From assembly GCA_019636735.1 (NCBI GenBank), contig JAHBWY010000005.1, forward strand, positions 28,117 through 92,116: a stretch of DNA of 64,000 nt, read 5' to 3'. Below are positions 4,853-43,355 of this stretch, piece by piece (the first letter of the stretch is position 1; the number at the start of each line of letters is the position of its first letter). The notes beneath the pieces are model-generated. The model did not search any database. It saw only the letters and a list, made by a program, of their open reading frames with translations, and was not told where the DNA came from. The stretch comes from Phycisphaeraceae bacterium (GTDB taxonomy: Bacteria; Planctomycetota; Phycisphaerae; Phycisphaerales; SM1A02). A program made the position numbers and the translations under genes.

Positions 4853-5939
4853 ACGCCGCCTTCACCTCGGACTCCCGCGGATGGTGCCGCGCGAATCGAA
4901 TCCCGAACTTCCGCATTCTCTGACCTGCACTGCGCTCCCCATGAATCACCCGGGCAAGGTCGAAGTGAGCCAGCAGCGCCTCGCGCTGTTCCGCAAGCGA
5001 CGGCGGGCGTGCTGGTCGTCCGGCCATCAGCTCCCGAGCCTGGCGGAAGATCCACGGATTGCCGATGCACCCACGCGCCACACTCACGGCGTGCACACGG
5101 CAGAGCTCGAGCATGGCGAAGATGTCCTCCACTTCCCAGACATCTCCCGATCCGAAGATGAGGCGATCGGGATGTCTGCGCGTGAGGTCACTCAGGAACA
5201 CCCAGCGCCCGGGACCTTCATAGCGCTGCACCACGGTGCGACAGTGGACGGTCGTCCAGAGGTAGCCAAGGTCATACGCGGCATCAAAGACTCGCTCGAA
5301 CGCGCGGACCATCTCGGGTGTGTCGTCATAGGAGCGACGCAGTTTGACCGTGCAGGGCACCTGTTCGGGAACGGCGCGGCGCACCGCGTCGAGCACCCGG
5401 ATGGCATCGTCGGGATGCGCGAGGAAGTGGCCGCCTCGGTTGGCCCGGCGGATCTTCTTGACCGGACATGCAAGGTTCACATCGAGAACCTCATAGCCCA
5501 TCTTGAGAAGGATGAGGGCGCCATCCGCCATCTCCGCTGGTTCAGTGCCAATGATCTGGCCTGCGATCGGGTGGTCATCGAGGCCCGCCGCCCGATTGTC
5601 CTCCAAGTCACCAGTGCCACACTCGCAGGCGATGAGATCGGGATCCTCCTTCCGCCGCCCCTTGCCCCCGTTGATGAGCGTGCGGTCGAGAAGTGCCTCC
5701 GTCACACAGAATGGCGCTCCATGGCGCCGGGCGATCAGTCGCATCGCCCCATCGGAGTAGCCGGCGAGCCCCGCCTGAAAGAAGGGTGCATCAAAGCCCG
5801 CGATCCGCCCGCTCACGCGCGGATCGACGCTCGCGGCGGCGGCAATCTCCGCGACCGGCCGTGGCAAGGCGCGGGCGGGGTTCATCCGCTGCGAGGGCGA
5901 AGGGGTCACGGGCACGCTCATGACAGTGAGGGTAGTCAT
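4719..5939 (-). CDS. dus: tRNA-dihydrouridine synthase (Dus family)
   Basis: TIM-barrel Dus motifs (LDVNLACPVKKI..., VPCTVKLRRSYDD, FGSGDVW). Start placed at Met MTTLTVMSVP (5939) rather than the first in-frame Met at 6113. Confidence 0.8.
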   Translation of the reverse strand: MTTLTVMSVPVTPSPSQRMNPARALPRPVAEIAAAASVDPRVSGRIAGFDAPFFQAGLAGYSDGAMRLIARRHGAPFCVTEALLDRTLINGGKGRRKEDPDLIACECGTGDLEDNRAAGLDDHPIAGQIIGTEPAEMADGALILLKMGYEVLDVNLACPVKKIRRANRGGHFLAHPDDAIRVLDAVRRAVPEQVPCTVKLRRSYDDTPEMVRAFERVFDAAYDLGYLWTTVHCRTVVQRYEGPGRWVFLSDLTRRHPDRLIFGSGDVWEVEDIFAMLELCRVHAVSVARGCIGNPWIFRQARELMAGRPARPPSLAEQREALLAHFDLARVIHGERSAGQRMRKFGIRFARHHPRESEVKAAFIRCETPEQWREVIDLWFGSDDPQAREQEGSPKSSVVAATPSAR

Positions 5940-6137
5940 GTGGCCATCGCATGGGCTCACTGGCCTGCGGTCCGCCCGACCGACGCTCGCGGTACATTGT
6001 CTTTGCTCATGCCGCGGGACCACGAAGGACACGACTCCCCCAGACACGCCGATGGGTCCATCACCAGCGGACAGGGCACCACCACGCAGTGTCCCTCCGA
6101 CGCCATTGGGCACCCGGCGGCCGCAGCGCGGTCCTTG

Positions 6138-6701
6138 ATGGACGGTCCGATGCCGCGTGCCATTGGCCGCAACTGCTCTCGCGGGGCCTCGAGCGCCGCC
6201 GTCACCCGCTTACGCCGCGCGTCGGTGGTCGGCACGATTTCCCTCATCGCGATGTTCGGAGGCGCAATCGTCGGCACGGGATGCAGCCCCGTCAATGTCG
6301 ATCCATCGCGAGCGACGCGGCACTACCCGCGCGAACTCGTGCAGGGCGAGGTGGTTCAGGTTCAAGTCATCCCCGGCCCCACCTGGGTCGAGGTCGTCAA
6401 CGCGACGGCACGGAGCTACCGGGACTTCGACCTCTGGCTCAACCAGCGATACATGGTCCATATCGACGCGCTCGAGTCGGGCCAGACGCTCAAGATCCCC
6501 CTCTCCGACTTCTGGGATTGGCGCGGCGAGGGCCCCTTCGAGGGCGGCATCTTCCGCTACTACGCACCGACTCCGATCGCGCTGATGCAGGCACAGCTCT
6601 CGCCGACCGACCCGCTCATCGGCTTCGTCTGCGTGCTGCCCGAGGGCGCCCGTGACTTCTATGAGAATCCGCCGGCTCTGCCGGTCCAGCCGCGCCGCTG
6701 A
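6138..6701 (+). CDS. Putative lipoprotein (hypothetical)
   Basis: Only the 3' third of the 606-aa ORF 4881..6701 looks protein-like; the rest is antisense to dus. Basic n-region, hydrophobic core and lipobox-like IVGTGC. Start is approximate. Confidence 0.45.
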   Translation: MDGPMPRAIGRNCSRGASSAAVTRLRRASVVGTISLIAMFGGAIVGTGCSPVNVDPSRATRHYPRELVQGEVVQVQVIPGPTWVEVVNATARSYRDFDLWLNQRYMVHIDALESGQTLKIPLSDFWDWRGEGPFEGGIFRYYAPTPIALMQAQLSPTDPLIGFVCVLPEGARDFYENPPALPVQPRR

Positions 6702-6824
6702 ACCAGCCTCGCCGCGCTGACTCTGCTTCGCGCCGCTGAGCCAGCCTCGCCGCGCTGACTCTGCTTCGCGCCGCCGAGCCAGCCTCGCCGCGCTGACTCT
6801 GCTTCGCGCCGCTAGGCCAGCCTC
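6691..6824. repeat. 38-bp tandem repeat, about 3.5 copies (CCAGCCTCGCCGCGCTGACTCTGCTTCGCGCCGCTGAG)
   Basis: Full units at 6703-6740, 6741-6778 and 6779-6816, differing by 1-2 nt at the unit end. Partial units at 6691-6702 and 6817-6824. The first partial unit includes the stop codon of the upstream CDS. Confidence 0.9.
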
Positions 6825-7002
6825 TTCACCAAGAGGCCGCGTTTCAGATCCCCCGCGTCACCGAGACCGAGCGAGGACGACCGGCACAATGAGAGCAAGC
6901 GAGGCGGGCTTCAGGGAAGCCGCCGAGCGAGGCTCGACGCAGTGCTGCGAAGCCGGAGCCGGTCGAAGGTAGCGCGGGGTCTGAAACACTCTCCAAGGCT
7001 GA

Positions 7003-8394
7003 TCAGAGGTTCGGCACTTCCCATCCTGCCCGATAGGGTCGCCGCACCCACGAGTTCGCCTCGGTGTTGTTTGTGATCGTCCCAAGCTGATCGTTGAACT
7101 CAAGCGTCTGCTCGTTGAAGCGGCTCGCAATCGCTCCCAGCGAGAGCATTTCGCACAGCGGCCCTGCCAACTCGAAGGGTGCGCGAGGCCGACCCTTGCC
7201 CAGGCAGGCGTCAACCCAGTCATGCCAGTGATTCGTGGTCGCGGCCTCGGGCAGCGACACCTCCACCTGACGACCGTCTCGGAACACCATCGGCGCCGCG
7301 CTGTCGCACGGCTGCACGAGGATCCCATCCTCGCCGACGACAATGGCTGCACCGTCGTTGTTCGGCAGCTTGAGATCCGTCGGCAATCCGATCTCGGCAA
7401 GGTCCGGCCTTCGACCGCCGTCGAACCAGTAGAAGGGCAGCGGCCCCGCCGTGCGCGGCGTCGCCGCGAAAGTCATGCGAATGGACTCCTGCGAGGGGAA
7501 CTGATCCTCGGTTGCATTCGGCGCGGAGCAGGTGATGGTCAGCGGTCCGGTCAACTCAAGCGCCATGAACGGCACATCCATGATGTGACAGCCCATGTCG
7601 CCGATCGCGCCGGTCCCAAAATCGTAGTAGCCGCGCCACTTGAAAGGCGTGTACGCATCCTTCACGAAGGGGCGCAGCGGCGCGACGCCGAGGAAGAGGT
7701 TCCAGCCCAGCCACTCGGGCACCGGGTCGTCACCAGCGGGACGATTCTCGCCGCACGGCCACCAACCTGCCGGGCGATCAGTCCAGCCGTAGAGCGCCTT
7801 CGCACGCCCGACCACACCCTGCTGAAGCAGCGCCAACCCCTGGCGTCGCTCCGCACGGGCGAAGCGCTGCGTTCCCATCTGCGTCATCACGCGCGGCTTC
7901 GTCGCCGCCACGCGGGCAAGCTGCCGATTCTCATAGGCCAGTCGCGCCAACGGCTTCTGGCAGTAGATGTGCTTGTCGTGGTTGAGCGCCGTCATGGCGA
8001 CCGGCGCATGCATGTGATCGGGCGTTGAGCAGACGATTGCATCGACTCGATCGCCGAGCGATGGAATGATTTCGCGCCAATCCTGGATCATCACCGCGCT
8101 ACTGAACTTCTCCGCGGCCTTCTCCATGGCACGGAGGTTCATGTCGCAGAGCGCGACGACCTCGACTCCGGGATGCGAAGAAACCTGTCCAAGGTCGCTG
8201 CCCCCCATGCCGCCGACCCCGACGAACGCCACGGCCAGTCGCTCATTCGCTCCAACACGCCCGGGAATGGCTGGCGCCAACTGCGGCCCGGCTCCGGCTC
8301 GCTTCGAGAACCCGGTCATGGCGGCCGCCATCGGCCCCGCACTCAGGGCCGCAAGGGCTCCCTGCTTGATGAACTCTCGACGCGTCTTGCTCAT
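7003..8394 (-). CDS. Gfo/Idh/MocA family oxidoreductase with twin-arginine signal
   Basis: N-terminal Tat motif MSKTRREFIKQGALAAL, Rossmann segment VAFVGVGGMGGSD, and the usual family architecture over 463 aa. Confidence 0.85.
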   Translation of the reverse strand: MSKTRREFIKQGALAALSAGPMAAAMTGFSKRAGAGPQLAPAIPGRVGANERLAVAFVGVGGMGGSDLGQVSSHPGVEVVALCDMNLRAMEKAAEKFSSAVMIQDWREIIPSLGDRVDAIVCSTPDHMHAPVAMTALNHDKHIYCQKPLARLAYENRQLARVAATKPRVMTQMGTQRFARAERRQGLALLQQGVVGRAKALYGWTDRPAGWWPCGENRPAGDDPVPEWLGWNLFLGVAPLRPFVKDAYTPFKWRGYYDFGTGAIGDMGCHIMDVPFMALELTGPLTITCSAPNATEDQFPSQESIRMTFAATPRTAGPLPFYWFDGGRRPDLAEIGLPTDLKLPNNDGAAIVVGEDGILVQPCDSAAPMVFRDGRQVEVSLPEAATTNHWHDWVDACLGKGRPRAPFELAGPLCEMLSLGAIASRFNEQTLEFNDQLGTITNNTEANSWVRRPYRAGWEVPNL

Positions 8395-29212: not shown

Positions 29213-30448
29213 GTGGGCCGATCAACGAGCGCATCCGAAGCAGCGCTCGCGAGTCTGGACGCGGCGCCTTGCTGCCTGCGCTGCGGGTATCCGATCGCGA
29301 CGACCTCCGAATCGCCGGCATGTTCCGAGTGCGGTGAGAGCACGGAGCGATCGCGTAAGGCATGGCGCGAAATGTGGATTCCGGGCGGCCGACGCGAGCG
29401 GCTGGCTCGCTCGCTCGTCCTGATCGCGACCTGCTCCGGAGCTCTCGCCGCCAGTTGGTCGCTGCAGACGCTGCTTCGACTCGAGGTGCTCGGGCCCAGT
29501 TCGGTGACGCCGGGGCCGTTCGGCTTGATCGCGCCGGTCGGTGCGGTGCTCAGGACGGGCCTCGTGATCACACTCATCCCACTCAACATCGTCGCGGCAT
29601 GCATCTGGTGGCGCATCGGGAGTCGGCCGCCGCTGCGGAGACGCGCCGCGAAGGGCTCTCTGCTCATCGTCGCCATGCTCGTCTGGGGATTCTGCACGCT
29701 GCTTCTGATCACACTGCTCGTCGGGGGGACCGTTGAGTCGCTTGATCGGCAGATGCAGACCATTCCCGAGTCGCTCGTGCTCGCGGCCACGCTGGCCGCA
29801 CAGTTCGCGATCTACCCGTGGCCGATGGCGCTCGCGGCGCGGGGGCTTCGAGCCGATCGCGACATCCCGTTCTGGCGCCGAGTCACCGCTCCGTGCGGAG
29901 TCGCAGGCCATGCGCTGCTCATCATCTGCGCCTGGTGCTTCGTGTCCGACGCAATCCTCCTGTTCGAGATGGAACGGGTCTTCGGCGCGATACTCATCCC
30001 GCCCTGGCTTCACTGGCTGATCCTGAAGACCTCGACGCTGCTCTGGAACGGCGGCGTGCCGCTCGCGCTCGCCTTCGTCGCGGGGGCGTCACTCGTGTCC
30101 CTCGCTCAAAGTGCGCAGGCGTTCGGCATCATGCCGTTGCTGAGGCGAACCTCGAGGACTCGCACCATCGTCGCGGCCATGCTCGTGACGATCTCCCTGC
30201 TCTCGATCGTGTGGTTCGGCTGCCTTGTAACCTGCATCCGGTTTGCCGGATTCACCGCGACGGGCGAACCGCAGGCGGATCGGGCTCGCGCCTTCATCGA
30301 GTCGCTGCTCGCCGACCCATTCTCACTGGCGCAGTTGGTCCTGCTTCCCCTGGTCATTCCCGCGGCGTGGATCGCGTGCTCGTGGTGGGCGCGGCGGCTT
30401 GCCTATTCGCCGATGTCCTCCGCCCAGAGGTCGGGCTTCTCGCGCTGA
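29213..30448 (+). CDS. Polytopic membrane protein with N-terminal zinc-ribbon (hypothetical)
   Basis: CCLRCGYPIATTSESPACSECGES (CxxC...CxxC) followed by about 9 hydrophobic helices. Its last 46 nt overlap the convergent deaminase gene. Its 3' ~150 nt recur at about 39385-39519 and 42797-42931. Confidence 0.6.
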   Translation: MGRSTSASEAALASLDAAPCCLRCGYPIATTSESPACSECGESTERSRKAWREMWIPGGRRERLARSLVLIATCSGALAASWSLQTLLRLEVLGPSSVTPGPFGLIAPVGAVLRTGLVITLIPLNIVAACIWWRIGSRPPLRRRAAKGSLLIVAMLVWGFCTLLLITLLVGGTVESLDRQMQTIPESLVLAATLAAQFAIYPWPMALAARGLRADRDIPFWRRVTAPCGVAGHALLIICAWCFVSDAILLFEMERVFGAILIPPWLHWLILKTSTLLWNGGVPLALAFVAGASLVSLAQSAQAFGIMPLLRRTSRTRTIVAAMLVTISLLSIVWFGCLVTCIRFAGFTATGEPQADRARAFIESLLADPFSLAQLVLLPLVIPAAWIACSWWARRLAYSPMSSAQRSGFSR

Positions 30449-30615
30449 AGGCGCTCCATCAGTGCCACGCAGCGCTCGTCGTTCAGCAGGCGCAGCTCGA
30501 CGCCCTCGCGCCTCATCCACTCCTCCGCGCCGAGATAGGTTCGATGCTCGCCGATCACCACGCGCGGGATCCTGAAGAGGATCGCGGTCCCCGAACACAT
30601 GGGACACGGTGAAAG
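30403..30615 (-). pseudogene. Cytosine deaminase copy 1, C-terminal fragment (split by IS66-family insertion)
   Basis: Encodes ...CPMCSGTAILFRIPRVVIGEHRTYLGAEEWMRREGVELRLLNDERCVALMERLQREKPDLWAEDIGE. Collinear with the intact copy 39474..39950 up to the IS junction at 30615/30616. Confidence 0.9.
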
Positions 30616-30632
30616 GTGTCCGTCCCGCGAAC

Positions 30633-32204: not shown

Positions 32205-32223
32205 CCCGCGAACCGCGATGGGG

Positions 32224-33822
32224 TCACTCTGAATCGGCCTGACGGCGTTGCCACTCATCGGGCAGCCAGTGATCAAGCTCTTCAGCCGGGGTCTTGGGCA
32301 GGTTCACAAGCAACTGCGTGAGGTAGACCTGTGGGTCGACGCCGTGGCGCCGACACGAGCTCGTGAGGCTCGAGAGGATCGCCGCCGTCTCGCCGCCGCA
32401 CGGACTGCCGACGATGAGCGAGTTCTTGCGGTTGAGCGCTTGACGCTTCATCTCGCGTTCGCTCGCGTTGTTGTCGATCGGGACTTCGGAGTCGTTCAGG
32501 AACACCGTCAGCTCGCTCCACTGGTTGAGCGCGTACTGCACCGCGCCCGCCATCGGGTGCTTGGGCAGCAGCACACCCTTCCAGTGCTCGAGCCGCCCCC
32601 GGATCATCTCCACGATCGGCCCGGACCTGTCCCGCCGGACTTCGGCGCGCGCGTCCGGGGTCGCCTCGCGGATCGATCGCTCGACCGCGAAGAGCGCATC
32701 CATGAGCGTCACCGCTTCGCGTGCGATTCCCGGCTCGCTCTTCTCGAGGTCGACGAACTTCCGCCGCGCATGCGCCCAGCATCCGGCGCGCGTGATCCCG
32801 TTGCCGGCCACGATCCCGTCGTAGCCGCCGTAAGCATCCGCCACGAGAGTCCCGCAGAAGTCCTTGAGGAACTTCGTCGGACCGTCTCTCGCCCGGCTCG
32901 GCGTGAAGTCGAACACCGTGTACGGATGCGAGTCGTCACCGAGGTAGACCCACATTCGCGCTTGACGCGTCTTCTCCTTCTCCAGGAGCGGCATCACCGT
33001 GTCATCGGTCCCGATCACGCGCGACGAGCGCACGCGATCGGCCATGCGCCGGTAGATCGGCATGGCGATCTCGGCGACATCGCGGCACCAGGTGGAGAGC
33101 GTCGATCGTGAGAGATCCAGGCCGTTGCGGCTGAAGATGTTTTCAAGTCTGTACAGCGGCAGGTAATCCGCGAACTTGCTCGTGACCACGAAGGCGAGCA
33201 GTCCGGGGCCGGCCATGCCCTTGTCGATCGCGGACGCGTCCTTCCGGGGCGCGGTCTCGACCTGGCCGCCGAGTCCCTCGCGATCGCAGTCGCGGCAGGC
33301 GTAGGTGTGGCGGCGATGGTGCCAGCGCTCGAAGTGGCCGGGGATGAACTCGACCTGCCAGCTTTCCTCGCATCCGATGCGGGTGCGCATCTGGCCGCAG
33401 CACTTGCAGGGCTTCTCGGCGTCGGGGAGATCATGCTCGACGGTGCGGACGGGCAGGTGCTCGAGGTCGGCGATGCGGCGGCGGCCGTGAGCCCCGGAAC
33501 GCTTCGCGTCGAGGCGACGCGCGTCGGCGCGGTCATCATCGGCAGCGCTCACCTCCGTCGGGAGCTCGAGCGGCCGCGCCTCGAGCTGCGTGGCGAACTC
33601 CAGCAGCAACTGGCCGAGCTCGACCACGGTCGACAGCCGATCCGCGCGCGGTCCGTAGAGACGCTTGCACAGCTTCAGAAGTTGCGCTTCGAGCCAGGCG
33701 ATCTTTGCGTCGCGATGCGCGAGCGACGCATCCTTCTCCGCGACATGAGACATCAGCATCGCGCAGAGCGCCTTCAGGGCATCGACATCTTCGGGAAGCT
33801 CGATCGCGGCCGCGTCGTCCAT
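32224..33822 (-). CDS. tnpC: IS66-family transposase TnpC
   Basis: 532 aa. N-terminal leucine-zipper region, zinc-finger CKCCGQMRTRIG...YACRDCD, DDE core with ...IGTDDTVMPLL... and ...AGCWAHARRKF... Confidence 0.9.
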   Translation of the reverse strand: MDDAAAIELPEDVDALKALCAMLMSHVAEKDASLAHRDAKIAWLEAQLLKLCKRLYGPRADRLSTVVELGQLLLEFATQLEARPLELPTEVSAADDDRADARRLDAKRSGAHGRRRIADLEHLPVRTVEHDLPDAEKPCKCCGQMRTRIGCEESWQVEFIPGHFERWHHRRHTYACRDCDREGLGGQVETAPRKDASAIDKGMAGPGLLAFVVTSKFADYLPLYRLENIFSRNGLDLSRSTLSTWCRDVAEIAMPIYRRMADRVRSSRVIGTDDTVMPLLEKEKTRQARMWVYLGDDSHPYTVFDFTPSRARDGPTKFLKDFCGTLVADAYGGYDGIVAGNGITRAGCWAHARRKFVDLEKSEPGIAREAVTLMDALFAVERSIREATPDARAEVRRDRSGPIVEMIRGRLEHWKGVLLPKHPMAGAVQYALNQWSELTVFLNDSEVPIDNNASEREMKRQALNRKNSLIVGSPCGGETAAILSSLTSSCRRHGVDPQVYLTQLLVNLPKTPAEELDHWLPDEWQRRQADSE

Positions 33823-33867
33823 GACGACATCCTCTCCGCGCCAGGCCCCGGCGCGGATGCAGGGAAA

Positions 33868-34237
33868 TCACGAACTTCGTGCGAATCGCTTCACGCGCTT
33901 CAGGCTCCGCAGGTCGACGCCGTCGAGCAGCATCGCCAGCTCGCTCGCGCGCAGCTCGATCGATGCACCTTCGTCGGCGCGAGGCAGACGGAAGGTGCCC
34001 GCCTCGAGCCGCTTGTACCAGAGCGCGTAGCCGTCGCGATCCCAGTAGAGAATCTTGAGGCGATCGCCTCCGCGCGAACGGAAGACGAAGAGGTGGCCGC
34101 TGCGAGGGTCCTGGCCGATCACTGACTGCGCCATCTCCGCGAGCCGATCGAAGCCGCGGCGCATGTCGGCGGGCGTCGTCGCCAGCCAGATGCGTGGCGC
34201 GCCTCGATCGAGCTGCGCGAGCGACGGTAGCGAGATC
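33868..34237 (-). pseudogene. tnpB: IS66 accessory protein TnpB, separated from its ATG by the IS256 insertion
   Basis: ...IWLATTPADMRRGFDRLAEMAQSVIGQDPRSGHLFVFRSRGGDRLKILYWDRDGYALWYKRLEAGTFRLP... The original ATG-ATC-TCG start now lies at 35702-35694, on the far side of the IS256 element. Confidence 0.8.
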
Positions 34238-36030: not shown

Positions 36031-36088
36031 CCACGAAGTGTCGACGCCGGCGGCCCGTCATGGAAGACGGGTTTCGCGGGACGGACGC

Positions 36089-36360
36089 GGTGAAAGCGTG
36101 CTCACCAGTGTGAGCGACCGCCAGTCGCGCCGGCGCCCGGCGCGGCGGATGCAGTCAACCTCCGCATGCGCCGTGGGGTCGCCGCTCTGCACGCGCTGGT
36201 TGTGGCCTGCCGCCACGACGCGCCCGCTCGGGCCGAGCAGCGCCGAGCCGATGGGAATGCCGCCCTCGCGCCAGCTCTTCTCCGCCTGCTCGATCGCCGC
36301 GAGCTCAGTGCGAGCCGTGGTGATCGGTGATCCCGACCTGACTTGTTGCTCGACTTTCAC
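36089..36360 (-). pseudogene. Cytosine deaminase copy 1, N-terminal fragment
   Basis: MKVEQQVRSGSPITTARTELAAIEQAEKSWREGGIPIGSALLGPSGRVVAAGHNQRVQSGDPTAHAEVDCIRRAGRRRDWRSLTLVSTLSP, interrupted exactly before the CPMC zinc ligands. Confidence 0.9.
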
Positions 36361-36440
36361 ATCGCATCGTGGCGCTCCGTCAGGATGGCCGTTTCAGCGT
36401 CCTGCGAGCATCACGGTTGAGCGAGTCCCTTACCGCGCGG

Positions 36441-37244
36441 TCACCCCCGCCTCCGGCCGCGAGTGCGCAGTGCGACCAGCGCCAGGAGCAAGGCGGCGCT
36501 GGGCGCGGGAACTGCCTGCGCCCGAAGAAGGAATACACCGTTACCTCCTAGTGCTGGGAATGAGTTGAGGCTCTGAATGACACCCGGAAACTGCGCATTC
36601 CAGGTCCCGCTTGGTGCGGTAGAAAACCACGAGCGATCAAGCGTCGGAACGCTGGTATCAATCGGCGCTGCAAATCCATTACTAACTGTTACGCTTACGC
36701 CCACAACAATATTGGCGAATGCGCTCACATCTGTCGGCGCCACGGTAACCGATTGAAACACATTCGACTTGATCGCGCCGGGATCGATCAGGGCACTCCA
36801 ACTCCCCAGATGGGTCATGCCGTTTGCGGGATCACCATCATTGTCGCCCCACAGATGGACATTGAAGGGAGCGCCGGCGCTGACACCCGCCGAGGAGGTA
36901 CTGCCCGCGAGGCCAAATGTGACCTGGATACTGGTGATGAGCGAGCCGCTCAGATTGACCGCGAAGACATTCATCCACGCAGCATCTGCAGTGTAACCAC
37001 TGAAGCCTCCTGCGGTGTTCGCCACGCCGTCATCCCACTGATAGGCGAAGTCGGCCGAAGCCGTCGCCGACAGAAGAGCAAGGCCGATCGATGCGATCGA
37101 CGCCGCTACGATGTGCCCGGTCGCCACATCAGACACGCACCGTTCTCGCGCGGCCTTTGCATTCATGGTGTCCGACTTAGGCTTGTGATCGCTGGCGGCT
37201 CGCCCCTGCCATGTTGTTGGCGCCTGGATCTGTGTCATCATCAC
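36441..37244 (-). CDS. PEP-CTERM-like anchored secreted protein, variant A
   Basis: C-terminus AVPAPSAALLLALVALRTRGRRRG (P-x-P motif + TM helix + Arg cluster). Signal-peptide-like IVAASIASIGLALLSATASA. Its start overlaps the stop of the upstream HAF gene (TGATG). Confidence 0.65.
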   Translation of the reverse strand: MMMTQIQAPTTWQGRAASDHKPKSDTMNAKAARERCVSDVATGHIVAASIASIGLALLSATASADFAYQWDDGVANTAGGFSGYTADAAWMNVFAVNLSGSLITSIQVTFGLAGSTSSAGVSAGAPFNVHLWGDNDGDPANGMTHLGSWSALIDPGAIKSNVFQSVTVAPTDVSAFANIVVGVSVTVSNGFAAPIDTSVPTLDRSWFSTAPSGTWNAQFPGVIQSLNSFPALGGNGVFLLRAQAVPAPSAALLLALVALRTRGRRRG

Positions 37245-39112
37245 TCACCTTCCTGTTGCTGGCTCATTACAAGCAGCGCGAGTGCCACCGCGGCCTCGAG
37301 CTGCGCCTTGCTCTTTCCCGCCGACCATTGGACGAACTGCTCGTCCGTTTCGAATCCAAGAGCGGCGAGGAACGAGTCCAGGCGATCCTGGGCGCTCCCG
37401 ATGCTCTCCACTCCTGTACGCAGGAATTCCGACGACTCACAGCAGATCGGATCGATTGTGAGCAGATCGTCACCGCTGCTCCAGTTCCCGATCAGGACCG
37501 CCAGGTCGTAGCCGTCGATCTTGACCTCTCCCTCAGGCGGTGTCGGGCCCAGGTCGAATGGACAGGCCTCGCTGCCTACTGAGCCCCAATGTCCAAGGAG
37601 CGCCGCCAGATCGGAACCGTCGATCCGATCATTCCCGTCGAAGTCCATCAGGTGGGCGAGCTTGTAGAGCGTGGTTCCTGCGATCACGAGCACCATGCCG
37701 CGATCGTTGACGGACGCCGCGAATGGGAGCTCGCCCTCGATCGTGCAGGCTCTGGTCACGGTGGCAAGATCAACGGCGCACCAGTCCGTTTCGAGGTCCT
37801 CCCCGCCCGGGTGCTCCCAGATGACGGCATGCGGACCGCCGCCAGCAGACTCCGACTCCTCTTCCTCCTCGACAAGTGGAACGGGTGAACGGAAGCCGGT
37901 GACTCGGATCAAGCCGTCGGCGCCGATCGAGATCGACTCCGCGCCGCTGGCATCGTTCGGCTCTTCGAGGAATGTTCCCAGATTGAGGTAAGGAAGGTCG
38001 TCGCTTCCAAGCGACCAGATCCACGCGTTGCGAACGCAGTCTTGGAAGGCAGGCGGAGCCTGCTGGCCAACGCCGACGGCCAGGCATCGCCCTTCTTCGC
38101 CAAGCGCAATTGCACGAGCGATGTTCTCGAAGTACAGCCAGTCGGACTCGCCGTCGGGCTGGTGCGGGTATGGCAGCAGACCGCCGCTGGGAGTCGAACC
38201 CATTGACCAGCCGTACGAATCCCGGGTTCGGCGGTCGGACGGGCAGTCGGCAAGGCTGAACTCCGCAGTGCACGGCCCAGGTTGCGGCGTCCTCTGCACG
38301 AACCCGACGGCCGCGGTGCCGGTCCCGGTGATCGCATACGGTCGGGCCATCGTGGGCAGCTCCCAATCTGATGGAAGCTCCTCTCCAAAATCACTGGACG
38401 ACCCAGTCCATTGAATGGCAAAGGGAAGGGATCCCCCTTCGCTATCCGAGCAGAACGAGAATGTCCCCACCACGATCGGCTCGAACCCGTCGGAGAGCGC
38501 CCACGCCAACCCGGTCCGAGGATCCGGCTCGCTTGCCGGCGATGATTGAGGATGCGGCGGCAAGTAGGGCGAAAGGTCGAAGACATCGTGCCCTGTTGAA
38601 CTGCTGCTCTCGCGCCACCAGATGCACGGCAGCGCGTTGCTCAATGCGGCGGTGGCGCCGGGATCGGGCAGCACGCCACCGACGACACTCCCGACATCGT
38701 TGATGCCCAGGGCCACTGACGCATCGGCGCCGCTTGGATGAAGCGAATGCAGCCCGGCGGAGAGCCCGTAGAGATCACGCGGAAGCCAGAGAAATGCCTC
38801 GGTCGTCTGACTCGAGCCTTCACCAACGACCCTCGATCCGGCGACGGCGCCATCGTCATTCGAGACAACGCGCGTGGTGATCGAATGGCGCCCCGAAATG
38901 AGCACGCTCGTCCCACTGCGAATCGAAGTCACAATGGGCACTGCCCGGTAGCGCTCGCAAGTCTGCGGCATTCCTCGCGCCCCAGCGACCGCCAGCAGGT
39001 GAATCGCTGCGAGCGCGGTCAGAGTCGGCGCGAGCCGACGGACGACGGACGACGGACGACGGACGACGGACGACGGACGACGGACGACGGACGACGGACT
39101 CAAGTTGTTCAT
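37241..39112 (-). CDS. HAF-repeat extracellular protein with dockerin-like EF-hand pair, copy A (in frame)
   Basis: GGAGGAG Shine-Dalgarno at 39116-39122, ATG at 39112, (PSSVVRR)x3, signal core LAPTLTALAAIHLLAVAGARG. HAF-like repeats (TEAFLWLP...ALGINDVGSVVGG). C-terminal DFDGNDRIDGSDLAALLGHWG and KIDGYDLAVLIGNWS. Confidence 0.75.
   Translation of the reverse strand: MNNLSPSSVVRRPSSVVRRPSSVVRRLAPTLTALAAIHLLAVAGARGMPQTCERYRAVPIVTSIRSGTSVLISGRHSITTRVVSNDDGAVAGSRVVGEGSSQTTEAFLWLPRDLYGLSAGLHSLHPSGADASVALGINDVGSVVGGVLPDPGATAALSNALPCIWWRESSSSTGHDVFDLSPYLPPHPQSSPASEPDPRTGLAWALSDGFEPIVVGTFSFCSDSEGGSLPFAIQWTGSSSDFGEELPSDWELPTMARPYAITGTGTAAVGFVQRTPQPGPCTAEFSLADCPSDRRTRDSYGWSMGSTPSGGLLPYPHQPDGESDWLYFENIARAIALGEEGRCLAVGVGQQAPPAFQDCVRNAWIWSLGSDDLPYLNLGTFLEEPNDASGAESISIGADGLIRVTGFRSPVPLVEEEEESESAGGGPHAVIWEHPGGEDLETDWCAVDLATVTRACTIEGELPFAASVNDRGMVLVIAGTTLYKLAHLMDFDGNDRIDGSDLAALLGHWGSVGSEACPFDLGPTPPEGEVKIDGYDLAVLIGNWSSGDDLLTIDPICCESSEFLRTGVESIGSAQDRLDSFLAALGFETDEQFVQWSAGKSKAQLEAAVALALLVMSQQQEGE
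39036..39098 (-). repeat. Heptanucleotide microsatellite (TCCGTCG)x9 within the 5' coding region
   Basis: Nine perfect tandem units counted base by base (plus-strand CGACGGA, 39036-39098). Confidence 0.95.
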
Positions 39113-39473
39113 CGACTCCTCCGCAGGTGAACCCGAGGTGGACCACTCGGAGAGAACCGGGTGGCCTGGATTTGCGGAAACCGGACTTGTTGGACTTTAC
39201 CGCCGTTCCGGAGCAGGTCAAGGCGCTGCGAGCAGATCTCGATGGAGCAGAATGGCATTTCCTGAGTGTTGAGGGGGCGGACGGTGGTCAAATGGGCCGT
39301 TGCAACGAGATCGCCGAGTTCCTTCGTTCCCAACACCCCAGCGTTCACCACGGCGTCGGCTCCCTGCTCACTCCCCTGCTCTCGGATCCCCCATCACTGG
39401 CGCAGTTGGTCCTGCTTCCCCTGGTCATTCCCGCGGCGTGGATCGCGTGCTCGTGGTGGGCGCGGCGGCTTGC

Positions 39474-39950
39474 CTACTCGCCGATGTCCTCGGCCCAGAG
39501 GTCGGGCTTCTCGCGCTGAAGGCGCTCCATCAGTGCCACACAGCGCTCGTCGTTCAACAGGCGCAGCTCAATGCCCTCGCGCCTCATCCACTCCTCCGCG
39601 CCGAGATAGGTGCGGTGCTCGCCGATCACCACGCGCGGGATCCTGAAGAGGATCGCGGTCCCCGAACACATGGGACACGGCGAGAGCGTGCTCACCAGCG
39701 TGAGCGACCGCCAGTCGCGCCGGCGCCCGGCGCGGCGGATGCAGTCAACCTCCGCATGCGCCGTGGGGTCGCCGCTCTGCACGCGCTGGTTGTGGCCTGC
39801 CGCCACGACGCGCCCGCTCGGGTCAAGCAGCGCCGAGCCGATGGGAATGCCGCCCTCGCGCCAGCTCTTCTCCGCCTGCTCGATCGCCGCGAGCCCAGTG
39901 CGAGCCGTGGTGATCGGTGATCCCGACCTGACTTGTTGCTCGACTTTCAC
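39474..39950 (-). CDS. Cytosine deaminase, yeast Fcy1-type (CMP/dCMP zinc-deaminase fold), copy 2, intact
   Basis: HAEVDCI...TLSPCPMCSG zinc motifs. The C-terminus NDERCVALMERLQREKPDLWAEDIGE closely parallels the Fcy1 C-terminus (...DDERCKKIMKQFIDERPQDWFEDIGE, quoted from memory). Confidence 0.8.
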   Translation of the reverse strand: MKVEQQVRSGSPITTARTGLAAIEQAEKSWREGGIPIGSALLDPSGRVVAAGHNQRVQSGDPTAHAEVDCIRRAGRRRDWRSLTLVSTLSPCPMCSGTAILFRIPRVVIGEHRTYLGAEEWMRREGIELRLLNDERCVALMERLQREKPDLWAEDIGE

Positions 39951-40030
39951 ATCGCATCGTGGCGCTCCGTCAGGATGGCCGTTTCAGCGTCCTGCGAGCA
40001 TCACGGTTGAGCGAAGCCCTTACCGGGCGG

Positions 40031-40696
40031 TCACCCCCGCCTTCGGCCGCGAGTGCGCAGTGCGACCAGCGCCAGGAGCAAGGCGGCGCTGGGCGCGGGA
40101 ACCGCGAAGCTCATGTACTCGATCATGCCGGCTACGGCGACTGTAAAGCCTTGAGGCGGCGGGGGCGGAATCAGTCGCACCCGGTCAAACGGCGTGACCG
40201 ACTGGAAGCCTACGAACACCGCCACTGCGTCATTGGGCGGCATTCCAAAGGGGATGTTGCTTGCAAAGATATCCCCGACGAGCGTATCGCCGAGGTAGAA
40301 CTCAACATGAACACCCATGTAGTTCAACGGCCGGGTGCCCCAGAACTTCAAGGGGGCTGCGAACTCCATGTTGATTTCGTAGATGCCTGGCGGCACGGGG
40401 TTCCATATGTCCTTACCCCCAATTGCCGGCTTCAGAGCCTGCGGATAGCCTGGATTCCACGCGTAGGCCGACCAGTCGTCCCCGTCGGTGAAACTCACGC
40501 CCTGCGGGGCCCATTGATTTGTTATAAGTGTGTTGGCCGGAACATCACCGAAATTGACCTGCGTGATGTTCGAGGCACCGCCAGCCGCCGACACCCACGC
40601 TGCTTTGTCAATGGTGTAGGACACGCCCGCCACGGCGTGCCCGGTCGTGACAGCGAACACGCACAGTACCGCCGCTCTCTGATCCTGTTTCATCAC
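40031..40696 (-). CDS. PEP-CTERM-like anchored secreted protein, variant B
   Basis: Same C-terminal AVPAPSAALLLALVALRTRGRRRG and same TGATG start overlap as variant A, but an unrelated 190-aa passenger (signal peptide AAVLCVFAVTTGHAVAG). Confidence 0.65.
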   Translation of the reverse strand: MMKQDQRAAVLCVFAVTTGHAVAGVSYTIDKAAWVSAAGGASNITQVNFGDVPANTLITNQWAPQGVSFTDGDDWSAYAWNPGYPQALKPAIGGKDIWNPVPPGIYEINMEFAAPLKFWGTRPLNYMGVHVEFYLGDTLVGDIFASNIPFGMPPNDAVAVFVGFQSVTPFDRVRLIPPPPPQGFTVAVAGMIEYMSFAVPAPSAALLLALVALRTRGRRRG

Positions 40697-42524
40697 TCAC
40701 CTTCCTGTTGCTGGCTCATTACAAGCAGCGCGAGTGCCACCGCGGCCTCGAGCTGCGCCTTGCTTTTTCCCGCCGACCATTGGACGAACTGCTCGTCCGT
40801 TTCGAATCCAAGAGCGGCGAGGAACGAGTCCAGGCGATCCTGGGCGCTCCCGATGCTCTCCACTCCTGTACGCAGGAATTCCGACGACTCACAGCAGATC
40901 GGATCGATTGTGAGCAGATCGTCACCGCTGCTCCAGTTCCCGATCAGGACCGCCAGGTCGTAGCCGTCGATCTTGACCTCTCCCTCGGGCGGTGTCGGGC
41001 CCAGGTCGAATGGACAGGCCTCGCTGCCTTCTGCACCCCACACTCCTAGCAACATTGCCAGATCTGACCCGTCAACCCGATCATTCCCGTCGAAGTCCAT
41101 CAGGTGGGCGAGCTTGTAGAGCGTGGTTCCTGCGATCACGAGCACCATGCCGCGATCGTTGACGGACGCCGCGAATGGGAGCTCGCCCTCGATCGTGCAG
41201 GCTCTGGTCACGGTGGCAAGATCAACGGCGCACCAGTCCGTTTCGAGGTCCTCCCCGCCCGGGTGCTCCCAGATGACGGCATGCGGACCGCCGCCAGCAG
41301 ACTCCGACTCCTCTTCCTCCTCGACAAGTGGAACGGGTGAACGGAAGCCGGCGACTCGGACGCTGTCGGGCGCCGATCGAGATCACCGATTCTTCCGCCG
41401 GCATCGCCCGATTTTTCGAGGAATGTACCCAGATTGAGGTAAGGCCGTCGCTTCCAAGCGACCAGATCCACGCGTTGCGAACGCAGTCTTGGAAGGCAGG
41501 CGGAGCCTGCTGGCCAACGCCGACGGCCAGGCATCGCCCTTCTTCGCCAAGCGCAATTGCACGAGCGATGTTCTCGAAGTACAGCCAGTCGGACTCGCCG
41601 TCGGGCTGGTGCGGGTATGGCAGCAGACCGCCGCTGGGAGTCGAACCCATTGACCAGCCGTACGAATCCCGGGTTCGGAGGAGTGTGGGGCAGTTGGGTT
41701 GTCCTAGCTCGGTCGAACACGGCCCAGGTTGCGGCGTCCTCTGCACGAACCCGACGGCCGCGGTGCCGGTCCCGGTGATCGCATACGGTCGGGCCATCGT
41801 GGGCAGCTCCCAATCTGATGGAAGCTCCTCTCCAAAATCACTGGACGACCCAGTCCATTGAATGGCAAAGGGAAGGGATCCCCCTTCGCTATCCGAGCAG
41901 AACGAGAATGTCCCCACCACGATCGGCTCGAACCCGTCGGAGAGCGCCCACGCCAACCCGGTCCGAGGATCCGGCTCGCTTGCCGGCGATGATTGAGGAT
42001 GCGGCGGCAAGTAGGGCGAAAGGTCGAAGAACTCGTGCCCTGTTGAACTGCTGCTCTCGCGCCACCAGATGCACGGCAGCGCGTTGCTCAATGCGGCGGT
42101 GGCGCCGGGATCGGGCAGCACGCCACCGACGACACTCCCGACATCGTTGATGCCCAGGGCCACTGACGCATCGGCGCCGCTTGGATGAAGCGAATGCAGC
42201 CCGGCGGAGAGCCCGTAGAGATCACGCGGAAGCCAGAGAAATGCCTCGGTCGTCTGACTCGAGCCTTCACCAACGACCCTCGATCCGGCGACGGCGCCAT
42301 CGTCATTCGAGACAACGCGCGTGGTGATCGAATGGCGCCCCGAAATGAGCACGCTCGTCCCACTGCGAATCGAAGTCACAATGGGCACTGCCCGGTAGCG
42401 CTCGCAAGTCTGCGGCATTCCTCGCGCCCCAGCGACCGCCAGCAGGTGAATCGCTGCGAGCGCGGTCAGAGTCGGCGCGAGCCGACGGACGACGGACGAC
42501 GGACGACGGAATCAAGTTGTTCAT
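40693..42524 (-). pseudogene. HAF-repeat/dockerin-like protein, copy B (out of frame at the leader, frameshifted internally)
   Basis: ATG 42524 opens only a 73-aa ORF. The body is split into 41222..42418 and 40693..41211, with at least 3 frame changes between about 41340 and 41460 relative to copy A. Elsewhere it is near-identical to copy A. Confidence 0.8.
42483..42510 (-). repeat. Heptanucleotide microsatellite (TCCGTCG)x4
   Basis: Four perfect units. This is 35 nt shorter than in copy A, which shifts the frame. Confidence 0.95.
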
Positions 42525-42885
42525 CGACTCCTCCGCAGGTGAACCCGAGGTGGACCACTCGGAGAGAACCGGGTGGCCTGGATTTGCGGAAACCGGACTT
42601 GTTGGACTTTACCGCCGTTCCGGAGCAGGTCAAGGCGCTGCGAGCAGATCTCGATGGAGCAGAATGGCATTTCCTGAGTGTTGAGGGGGCGGACGGTGGT
42701 CAAATGGGCCGTTGCAACGAGATCGCCGAGTTCCTTCGTTCCCAACACCCCAGCGTTCACCACGGCGTCGGCTCCCTGCTCACTCCCCTGCTCTCGGATC
42801 CCCCATCACTGGCGCAGTTGGTCCTGCTTCCCCTGGTCATTCCCGCGGCGTGGATCGCGTGCTCGTGGTGGACGCGGCGGCTTGC

Positions 42886-43355
42886 CTACTCGCCGATGTC
42901 CTCGGCCCAGAGGTCGGGCTTCTCGCGCTGAAGGCGCTCCATCAGTGCCACACAGCGCTCGTCGTTCAACAGGCGCAGCTCAATGCCCTCGCGCCTCATC
43001 CACTCCTCCGCGCCGAGATAGGTGCGGTGCTCGCCGATCACCACGCGCGGGATCCTGAAGAGGATCGCGGTCCCCGAACACATGGGACACGGCGAGAGCG
43101 TGCTCACCAGCGTGAGCGACCGCCAGTCGCGCCGGCGCCCGGCGCGGCGGATGCAGTCAACCTCCGCATGCGCCGTGGGGTCGCCGCTCTGCACGCGCTG
43201 GTTGTGGCCTGCCGCCACGACGCGCCCGCTCGGGCCGGGCAAGCCGCCGAGCCGATGGGAATGCCGCCTTCGAGCCAGCTCGTCTCCGCCTGCTCGATCG
43301 CCGCGTCGAGACCGGCGCGGATGGCGGCATCGGGAGGCCAGGCGGAGACGCTCAC
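42886..43355 (-). pseudogene. Cytosine deaminase copy 3 (frameshifted; divergent N-terminus)
   Basis: From PSGRVVAAGHNQ to the stop it is identical in protein sequence to copy 2 (ORF 42886..43242). The N-terminal part ...DAAIRAGLDAAIEQAETSWLEGGIPIGSA lies in another frame (ORF 43104..43472; candidate GTG at 43355). The junction near 43235-43245 has 10 nt where copy 2 has 8. Confidence 0.75.

Follow-up and report, generated by a model that had tools for sequence, protein, structure and literature searches.

A candidate contingency locus in a Phycisphaeraceae genome: a heptanucleotide tract between the start codon and signal peptide of an exoprotein gene

Can a short tandem repeat act as a switch when its unit is not a multiple of three and it separates the start codon of a predicted exoprotein gene from the part coding for the signal peptide? 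The question is raised by a 64,000-nucleotide (nt) stretch of a Phycisphaeraceae bacterium genome (Planctomycetota; Phycisphaerae; Phycisphaerales; contig JAHBWY010000005.1; the whole stretch is hereafter called the window), which harbors two copies, A and B, of a cassette made of such a gene and a small downstream partner gene, with a perfect array of TCCGTCG units in each exoprotein gene. The tract is probably (at roughly 0.75) a hypermutable simple-sequence repeat working as a translational ON/OFF switch, i.e., a contingency locus. An earlier note on the window had proposed a slipped-strand frame switch between start codon and signal peptide, and this proposal was supported by differences in unit number, conservation of the site, the mix of phases, and the ratios of non-synonymous to synonymous substitutions (dN/dS) among relatives.

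On the minus strand, nine perfect units occupied positions 39036-39098, beginning 14 nt past the ATG at 39112 (Tandem Repeats Finder, 39036-39099: period 7, 9.1 copies, 100% match). The coding strand of gene A reads GGAGGAG-TCG-ATG AAC AAC TTG AG-(TCCGTCG)9-GCTCGCGCC, with GCTCGCGCCGACTCTGACC directly 3' of the tract. The corresponding open reading frame (ORF), 37241..39112 on the minus strand, encoded 623 amino acids (aa) with the N-terminus MNNLSPSSVVRRPSSVVRRPSSVVRRLAPTLTALAAIHLLAVAGARG (protein start MNNLSPSSVVRRPSSVVRRPSSVVRR, then LAPTLTALAAIHLLAVAGARG), and the tract separates its start codon from the hydrophobic core of the signal peptide. The ribosome-binding site, the ATG and the nine units ahead of the core, all described in the earlier note, were thus borne out by the sequence and by Tandem Repeats Finder, and the NCBI annotation gave the same 623-aa product (MBX3355682.1, hypothetical). 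From the tract to the hydrophobic core, zero in-frame ATG, GTG or TTG codons were found; judged from the reading frame, the product of gene A needs ATG 39112 for its signal peptide. An in-frame TTG at 39101-39103 aligned with the ATG of orthologues, and the equivalent of the cleavage region in orthologue L002 was AHA-RRQVCERYR (the hyphen marking the cut). An 80-aa ORF at 39109..39351, overlapping the start codon through ATGA, displayed no family match and was treated as spurious.

When the gene was rebuilt in silico with 0 to 15 units, a full-length ORF was obtained only for unit numbers divisible by three, while the other numbers gave products ending at 66-94 aa or at 14-42 aa. The earlier claim that gain or loss of a non-triplet unit disconnects the start codon from the body of the gene held throughout this series. 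With 3, 6, 9 and 12 units the leaders remained plausible, their n-region becoming longer and more arginine-rich. Such a tract is not expected by chance in this sequence: the three-unit 21-mer had nine matches in the window versus 0.01 expected from shuffles, none of 100 Markov-1 simulated windows contained a period-7 tract of at least 21 nt, and in a census of perfect short repeats over the 64 kb, the tracts of nine and four units were the longest by far.

The two cassettes belong to a tandem segmental duplication (Table 1), each unit of which combined, on the minus strand, a partial cytidine-deaminase-like gene, an upstream stretch of about 360 nt containing a promoter-like element, the exoprotein gene and the small downstream gene. 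The 300 nt upstream of the tract were identical in A and B, and the first difference 3' of it was about 450 nt away. The tracts themselves were exactly five units (35 nt) apart, with nine units in A and four in B (Tandem Repeats Finder: 4.0 copies at 42483-42510), and the base just before them was G in A and T in B. As previously noted, the four-unit tract is out of frame, leading from ATG 42524 to a 73-aa dead end, with the body reopening at Met 42418; the idea of a copy merely in the OFF phase did not stand. Copy B showed internal indels of -4, +1 and -2, and because the -2 is uncompensated and leaves three reading frames (from 42524, 42418 and 41211), it was considered a pseudogene, of which the NCBI annotation calls only a 172-aa tail (MBX3355685.1).

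Table 1. Features of the two cassettes in the window and of the related loci used for comparison.
Feature	Position	Strand	Remarks
Heptanucleotide tract (TCCGTCG)x9, cassette A	39036..39098	-	translated (PSSVVRR)x3 in the signal-peptide n-region; proposed hypermutable frame switch, currently ON
Shine-Dalgarno-like GGAGGAG, gene A	39116..39122	-	GGAG/GAGG also 8-12 nt 5' of ATG in relatives
Start codon ATG, gene A	39110..39112	-	first start codon past the upstream stop; matches the NCBI product
Hydrophobic core and probable cleavage region of the gene A signal peptide, LAPTLTALAAIHLLAVAGA then RG	38978..39034	-	predicted helix, residues 22-43
Promoter-like TTGACC-16-TAAAGT, about 80 nt 5' of ATG 39112	39194..39221	-	consensus match only; duplicated at 42606-42633
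Gene A, secreted protein, 623 aa	37241..39112	-	beta-rich (propeller-like) core, one HAF-like repeat, C-terminal dockerin-like D-x-D-G-x-D-L repeats, conserved helical tail
Partner gene, cassette A, 267 aa	36441..37244	-	ATG overlaps the stop of gene A (TGATG); C-terminus VPAPSAALLLALVALRTRGRRRG resembles a PEP-CTERM sorting signal
Tandem segmental duplication	37238..43305		37238-39891 matches 40690-43305, 95.9% identity; differences in three patches
Heptanucleotide tract (TCCGTCG)x4, cassette B	42483..42510	-	out of frame
73-aa dead-end ORF from ATG 42524, cassette B	42303..42524	-	ribosome-binding site 42528-42534
Gene B body, two frames (41222..42418, 40693..41211)	40693..42418	-	split by an uncompensated 2-nt deletion near 41369; pseudogene
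Partner gene, cassette B, 221 aa	40031..40696	-	partner type kept in L001, L002, L003; same sorting-like C-terminal signal
L001, 5.6-kb ENA contig			A-type gene body with 1 mismatch; A-type G flank; four units; B-type partner gene
L002, orthologue, 53% identity, 597 aa, intact			ATGAT-(TCGCTCG)x4; in frame, ON; leader MIRSSLVARRSAAPVALLSVVAGLSALALVGVAHA then RRQVCERYR
L003, orthologue, 52% identity			ATGATCGGT-(TCACTCG)x3.3; out of frame, OFF; further stops
L124			(CAGCCCAG)x5 plus one imperfect unit; ON
L125			CAGCCCAG unit x4; OFF
L126			(CAGCCAGA)x7; OFF
L127			(ACAGCCAG)x5; OFF
L128, Phycisphaerales MAG			decayed 8-mer x5; ON
L130			n-region with a C8 homopolymer; in frame
L131			no repeat; in frame
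L132			(GCACGTC)x4; OFF

There is only a very slight chance that the difference between nine and four units, or the frameshifts, are errors from assembling a repeated 3.4-kb segment. The window does derive from a metagenome-assembled genome (MAG), and its two cassettes, 96% identical, are hard to assemble; signs of repeat-induced joining were also displayed by contig L001. In that contig, the combination of the G flank with four units was treated as suggestive only, because the deaminase fragment joined to it upstream belongs to another copy, which may reflect repeat-induced misassembly. Against an artefact, nine further, independent contigs (ENA, Logan, JGI, NCBI) had perfect 7- or 8-nt tracts at this position of the gene, and a 35-nt difference made of whole units is atypical of sequencing or assembly errors.

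Close relatives of the exoprotein were few, with only three among 5.8 billion clustered proteins. A HMMER family-profile scan of 1.84 billion representatives retrieved 516 proteins at E <= 0.001, many of which matched over the HAF-like or the dockerin-like segment only. Tracts were compared in 13 gene copies whose 5' end could be read, copies A and B of the window included (L129, with its 5' end missing, was left unscored). A perfect 7- or 8-nt array was located 0-12 codons from the start codon in 10 of these 13 copies, and the remaining three had one decayed 8-mer, one C8 run and no repeat, respectively. The layout common across this Phycisphaerae gene family consisted of a ribosome-binding site, an ATG, 0-12 codons, a non-triplet repeat and a hydrophobic core. 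Protein-pattern scans of genome, metagenome and viral contigs with alignment A1 returned zero relatives; 21 metagenome loci from a broader alignment (A2) were excluded from the family, their tblastn match being essentially limited to the C-terminal dockerin-like repeats (9-36% coverage).

Heptamer units were related to one another on rotation (TCGCTCG, TCACTCG, TCGCACG, TCGTCCG), and octamer units were mutually related as well (CAGCAGCC, CGGCAGCC, ACAGCCAG). Arrays were found at the same site both in orthologues (52-53% identity) and in a subfamily at about 26% identity, each with its own perfect unit. Being perfect within lineages and built of different units between them, these arrays point to continuing slippage along with long-term retention of a mutable site. 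For the family protein P0013 (N-terminus MQPSSPAAQQPSSPAAQQP), the 8-nt repeat CAGCCCAG was predicted from the peptide alone and then confirmed in the DNA. Retrieval of DNA for its subfamily and for three additional members yielded loci L124 to L132, the octamer loci L124-L126 being from JGI 3300050212. Near-identical 5' ends in L124 and L125 carried six and four octamer units. Comparison with related genomes, which the earlier note had put forward as a check, therefore went in favor of the switch, since unit number differed between near-identical copies while the site was kept.

Two of the related loci displayed peculiarities of their own. The C8 run of L130 (672-679), a more distant member of the family, occupied the site of the 7- or 8-nt repeats of other members, in frame with an upstream ATG at 656 that was unused by the gene caller. 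In L003, in-frame TGA codons were found at 195-197 and 560-562, one of them at a Trp of the relatives (CIWWRE turned into CV-stop-CRE); these most likely reflect a pseudogene or an error in the Logan contig.

Among the 10 perfect tracts, three were ON and seven OFF, a proportion close to the one third ON that would be expected under free switching. Uninterrupted ORFs of about 490-600 codons were kept in five of the seven OFF copies. In all OFF copies with an intact body, a change of one or two units restored a standard leader composed of basic n-region, hydrophobic core and A-x-A site, and the frame-restored copies shared a conserved C-x-(R/P)YR motif 3' of the leader. Nei-Gojobori dN/dS, which gives rough values here because dS is saturated in distant pairs, ranged from 0.20 to 0.44 over all pairs and reached 0.43 (L126/L127) and 0.35 (L125/L126) in pairs where both copies were OFF. 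As intact OFF copies and such ratios between them would be unexpected for permanently silent proteins, the OFF state looks transient on an evolutionary timescale.

The same site could instead be a neutral mutational hot spot, i.e., a permissive n-region in which repeats drift, with OFF copies as gene deaths in a dispensable, duplicating family and no selected switching. Extra frameshifts or stops in copy B and L003 would fit this explanation, as would the absence of a repeat in L131 and its decay in L128, which indicate that the repeat is not obligatory. The GC content at third codon positions, lower in cassette genes (0.65-0.74) than in neighboring housekeeping genes (0.80-0.85), fits an accessory gene. 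This explanation is nevertheless unlikely, given perfect arrays at one site in 10 of 13 copies down to about 26% protein identity, units that are related within subfamilies and homogenized within each array, long intact ORFs in five of seven OFF copies, and OFF-OFF dN/dS values (about 0.35-0.43) that would be unexpected if OFF meant permanent loss.

A role as a length tuner, in which in-frame steps of three units (7 aa, +2 charge) adjust export efficiency and out-of-frame states are by-products, is highly improbable. Plausible, increasingly arginine-rich leaders at 3, 6, 9 and 12 units are compatible with it, and tract length also affects enzyme activity in the phase-variable gene neuO of Escherichia coli K1 (PMC13001214). 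However, the usual step would be a single-unit slip, which always breaks the frame, and 7 of the 10 perfect tracts were indeed out of frame. Moreover, the octamer units of relatives encoded the uncharged QPSSPAAQ, and charge tuning could therefore not be general.

Altogether, four features of contingency loci were found here: a perfect non-triplet repeat inside the reading frame, 3' of the start codon; a change in unit number that switches, in silico, between full-length and truncated products; tract-length polymorphism among close sequences with conserved flanks; and orthologues that keep a repeat at the same site, with ON and OFF states mixed and OFF alleles otherwise intact.

Several observations weigh against the interpretation as a contingency locus. 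Of the seven OFF copies, two (B of the window and L003) had additional lesions, and some copies are thus simply decaying. Saturated dS in distant pairs blurs the estimates of selection. L001 is a short-read contig of 4x coverage, in which assembly chimerism or mismatch correction could yield a G flank next to four units. An in-frame ATG or GTG was present at the start of the hydrophobic core in L125, L126, L127 and L132, without an obvious ribosome-binding site, and OFF in these loci may stand for residual, low expression from a weak internal start and not for complete silence. Finally, co-switching of the partner gene is probable from a single line of evidence, the overlap of stop and start codons.

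Automatic gene calls for the OFF alleles L125, L126 and L127 used an internal start and lost the leader wholly or partly, and the call for L132 likewise began downstream of the tract-linked ATG (internal positions 3001 in L125, 632 in L126, 3001 in L127 and 1501 in L132). The family representatives P0029 and P0050 began inside or just past a truncated hydrophobic core, and may be further mis-started OFF alleles.

If the tract is a contingency locus, replication slippage would add or remove 7-nt units and expression would flip stochastically and reversibly. In the ON state, the n-region of the leader gains extra PSSVVRR heptads through translation of the tract; these would presumably be removed with the signal peptide, so that changes in tract length would leave the mature protein unaltered. 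In the OFF state, the frame ends after 14-94 codons, and the partner gene, losing its coupling or subject to polarity, would probably be turned down too. The two genes would then constitute a surface or secreted module for which switching is advantageous, with silencing worthwhile at certain times, possibly under attack by phages or predators or in a trade-off between attachment and dispersal.

The earlier note had also considered a switch between secreted and leaderless forms, for which no support was obtained. According to this explanation, an out-of-frame tract redirects initiation to Met 38971 and yields a cytoplasmic isoform; the ATG at 38971 does lie two residues past the likely cleavage site, with the frame open onward. 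This Met is however absent from orthologue L002 (ARRQVCERYR there), AGGA abuts the ATG with zero spacer, and a disulfide-rich protein with dockerin-like repeats would be unlikely to function in the cytoplasm. Such an isoform switch has very little probability.

The nature of the switched proteins could be outlined only in part, as no significant Pfam or NCBIfam family was found for the exoprotein or for the partner proteins of the window. The label of HAF-repeat exoprotein given in the earlier note was too strong: the HAF repeat model TIGR02913 matched gene A over residues 134-145 only, with 11.6 bits (E = 0.21) against a cut-off of 22.65. Residues ~70-140 aligned in profile searches with genuine HAF proteins, e.g., P0004 (HAF_rpt E = 7e-43), and the protein is best described as HAF-like, short of demonstrated membership of the family. 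The D-x-D-G-x-D-L repeats were recognized by eye and from profile matches to positions 470-545; Dockerin type I (PF00404) gave no Pfam match to the window exoprotein at E <= 1, and relative P0014 had a 'faint' precomputed match to it. An AlphaFold model from a 10-sequence alignment, of moderate quality (predicted local distance difference test, pLDDT, 58.6; predicted template modelling score, pTM, 0.62), displayed a beta-rich core at residues 55-490 and a helical C-terminus. The best Foldseek matches of this model in the PDB were beta-propellers, headed by 5mul (glycoside hydrolase BT3686; E = 3.5e-5, target TM-score 0.54), which supports a predicted beta-propeller fold class and no specific function.

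A partner gene of about 190-270 aa was located directly 3' of the exoprotein gene in all loci. The TGATG stop/start overlap was present in both cassettes, confirming at the sequence level the translational coupling that had been suggested for the window. A C-terminal layout of [VI]PAP[GS]A, hydrophobic stretch and RRRR was common to the loci by eye. PEP-CTERM models (TIGR02595 / PF07589) did not match the 267-aa or the 221-aa partner, even at E <= 1 or 10; the partner of L131 reached the cut-off of TIGR02595 (16.8 vs 16 bits), and other partners gave weak PEP-CTERM-type matches. In L128, three successive paralogues of about 190 aa were found at 4865-7138, at least the first of partner type with a PAP...RRRR ending, indicating that the partner gene also duplicates.

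Differences between cassettes A and B were concentrated in dense patches (38232-38270, 37900-37998 and 37578-37624) amid otherwise identical sequence, with, for example, 22 substitutions in one span of 39 nt. In the first patch, the B peptide ELGQPNCP was nearer to orthologue L002 (DIGLPNCP) than the A peptide EFSLADCP. These patches look like mosaic recombination or hypervariable surface loops. A diversity-generating retroelement was dropped as their source, the substitutions showing no adenine specificity.

The surroundings of the cassettes were chromosomal, with genes for FtsK, ATP synthase alpha subunit and transporters. Deaminase-related stretches were found at 30323-30618, 36083-36512, 39394-40102 and 42806-43305. 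The cytidine-deaminase-like gene (39474..39950, PF00383) was complete only between the two cassettes; another copy was split into a 5' and a 3' fragment, 5.4 kb apart, flanking an IS66-family transposase (~32205-34237). Along with the L001 contig, the deaminase fragments and the IS66 element suggest that the cassette was rearranged and duplicated in tandem in association with an insertion sequence.

Other repeats were encountered in the window and elsewhere. A 38-nt tandem repeat (6691-6824; 3.5 copies, 94% identity, score 240), each unit of which contained CGCCGCTGA, began at the stop codon of ORF 4881..6701 on the plus strand. An Rfam search of the window found nothing. Arrays of four or more TCCGTCG units were found in more than 120 places in GTDB species genomes (loci L004-L123), mostly in Chloroflexia and Actinomycetota; more than 20 of these were in one Chloroflexia MAG (DATEOC01, SMAG_U8985), with several more spread over other Chloroflexia and a Thermoguttaceae MAG. 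Most were apparently intergenic, and they are reminiscent of the heptamer arrays spread across the genomes of cyanobacteria and Beggiatoaceae (PMC4679880). A check of their ORF context displayed no consistent link to gene 5' ends; this search is uninformative on the present locus, and it did not recover the genome of the window itself.

The proposed mechanism is known from opa, autA/autB and neuO; the phylum, the putatively environmental setting and the family-wide retention of a mutable site with turnover of its units would be new. As in autA/autB of Neisseria and Haemophilus, the repeat lies in the region coding for the signal sequence and its frame would set ON or OFF, the switch being predicted here from sequence. 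In autA/autB, AAGC repeats lie directly 3' of the start codon in signal-sequence DNA, most natural alleles are OFF, some with additional disruptions, and the repeat number has to be adjusted before the predicted proteins can be reconstructed (PMC5118866). In contrast to these tetranucleotide-controlled autotransporters of host-restricted Proteobacteria, units of 7 or 8 nt were found here in environmental Phycisphaeraceae, in a gene that encodes a beta-propeller-like exoprotein and is coupled to a partner gene downstream.

The opa repeat is said (Stern et al. 1986) to lie in the region coding for the leader peptide. The opa genes of Neisseria form a multi-copy surface-protein family with CTTCT repeats, a frame set for each copy, hypervariable patches and recombination (PMC5953494). 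Similarly, the surface-type gene copies of the window each had their own coding repeat and differed in patches. Unlike opa, which has a pentamer and encodes an outer-membrane beta-barrel adhesin of a human pathogen, they numbered only two, one of them decayed. In E. coli K1, neuO carries AAGACTC repeats at its 5' coding end, full-length only if the units are divisible by three, with 3-53 units in natural isolates and 34% of the complete neuO-carrying K1 genomes ON (PMC13001214). The heptanucleotide unit in the 5' coding region, the divisibility rule and about two thirds of copies OFF are shared with the present family. NeuO is a cytoplasmic, prophage-borne O-acetyltransferase that keeps the repeat in the mature enzyme, whereas here the repeat is in a cleavable leader and the exoprotein family had no phage relatives in the viral-contig scan. 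Neisseria pglE is another phase-variable gene with a genic heptanucleotide repeat (CAAACAC, 5-34 copies; PMC5953494). It shares a heptanucleotide coding repeat with the present genes and differs from them in encoding a glycosyltransferase of a pathogen, with the repeat outside any leader peptide.

No report of phase variation in Planctomycetota or Phycisphaerae was found in the searchable literature. To our knowledge, phase variation through short repeats has been documented almost entirely in host-adapted pathogens and commensals. We tentatively suggest, with slightly less than even confidence, that the two-gene cassette family of free-living Phycisphaerae has kept a mutable non-triplet repeat in the n-region of its leader since a divergence of ~26-50% identity, with turnover between 7-nt, 8-nt and poly-C units, and that this reflects second-order selection for mutability outside the host-pathogen setting. 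If this is true, OFF alleles of such cassettes would escape standard gene callers, which mis-start them and thereby remove the signal peptide wholly or partly, a point to be kept in mind for annotation.

If confirmed, the locus would point to a two-gene module formed by a beta-propeller-like exoprotein and a partner with a PEP-CTERM-like ending. The family would provide a natural comparative series for studying selection on mutability itself, in which a single site holds units that vary between members and is ON in some of them and OFF in others. It would also imply that free-living bacteria of water or soil switch their surface proteins stochastically, with phages or grazers as the likely selective agents.

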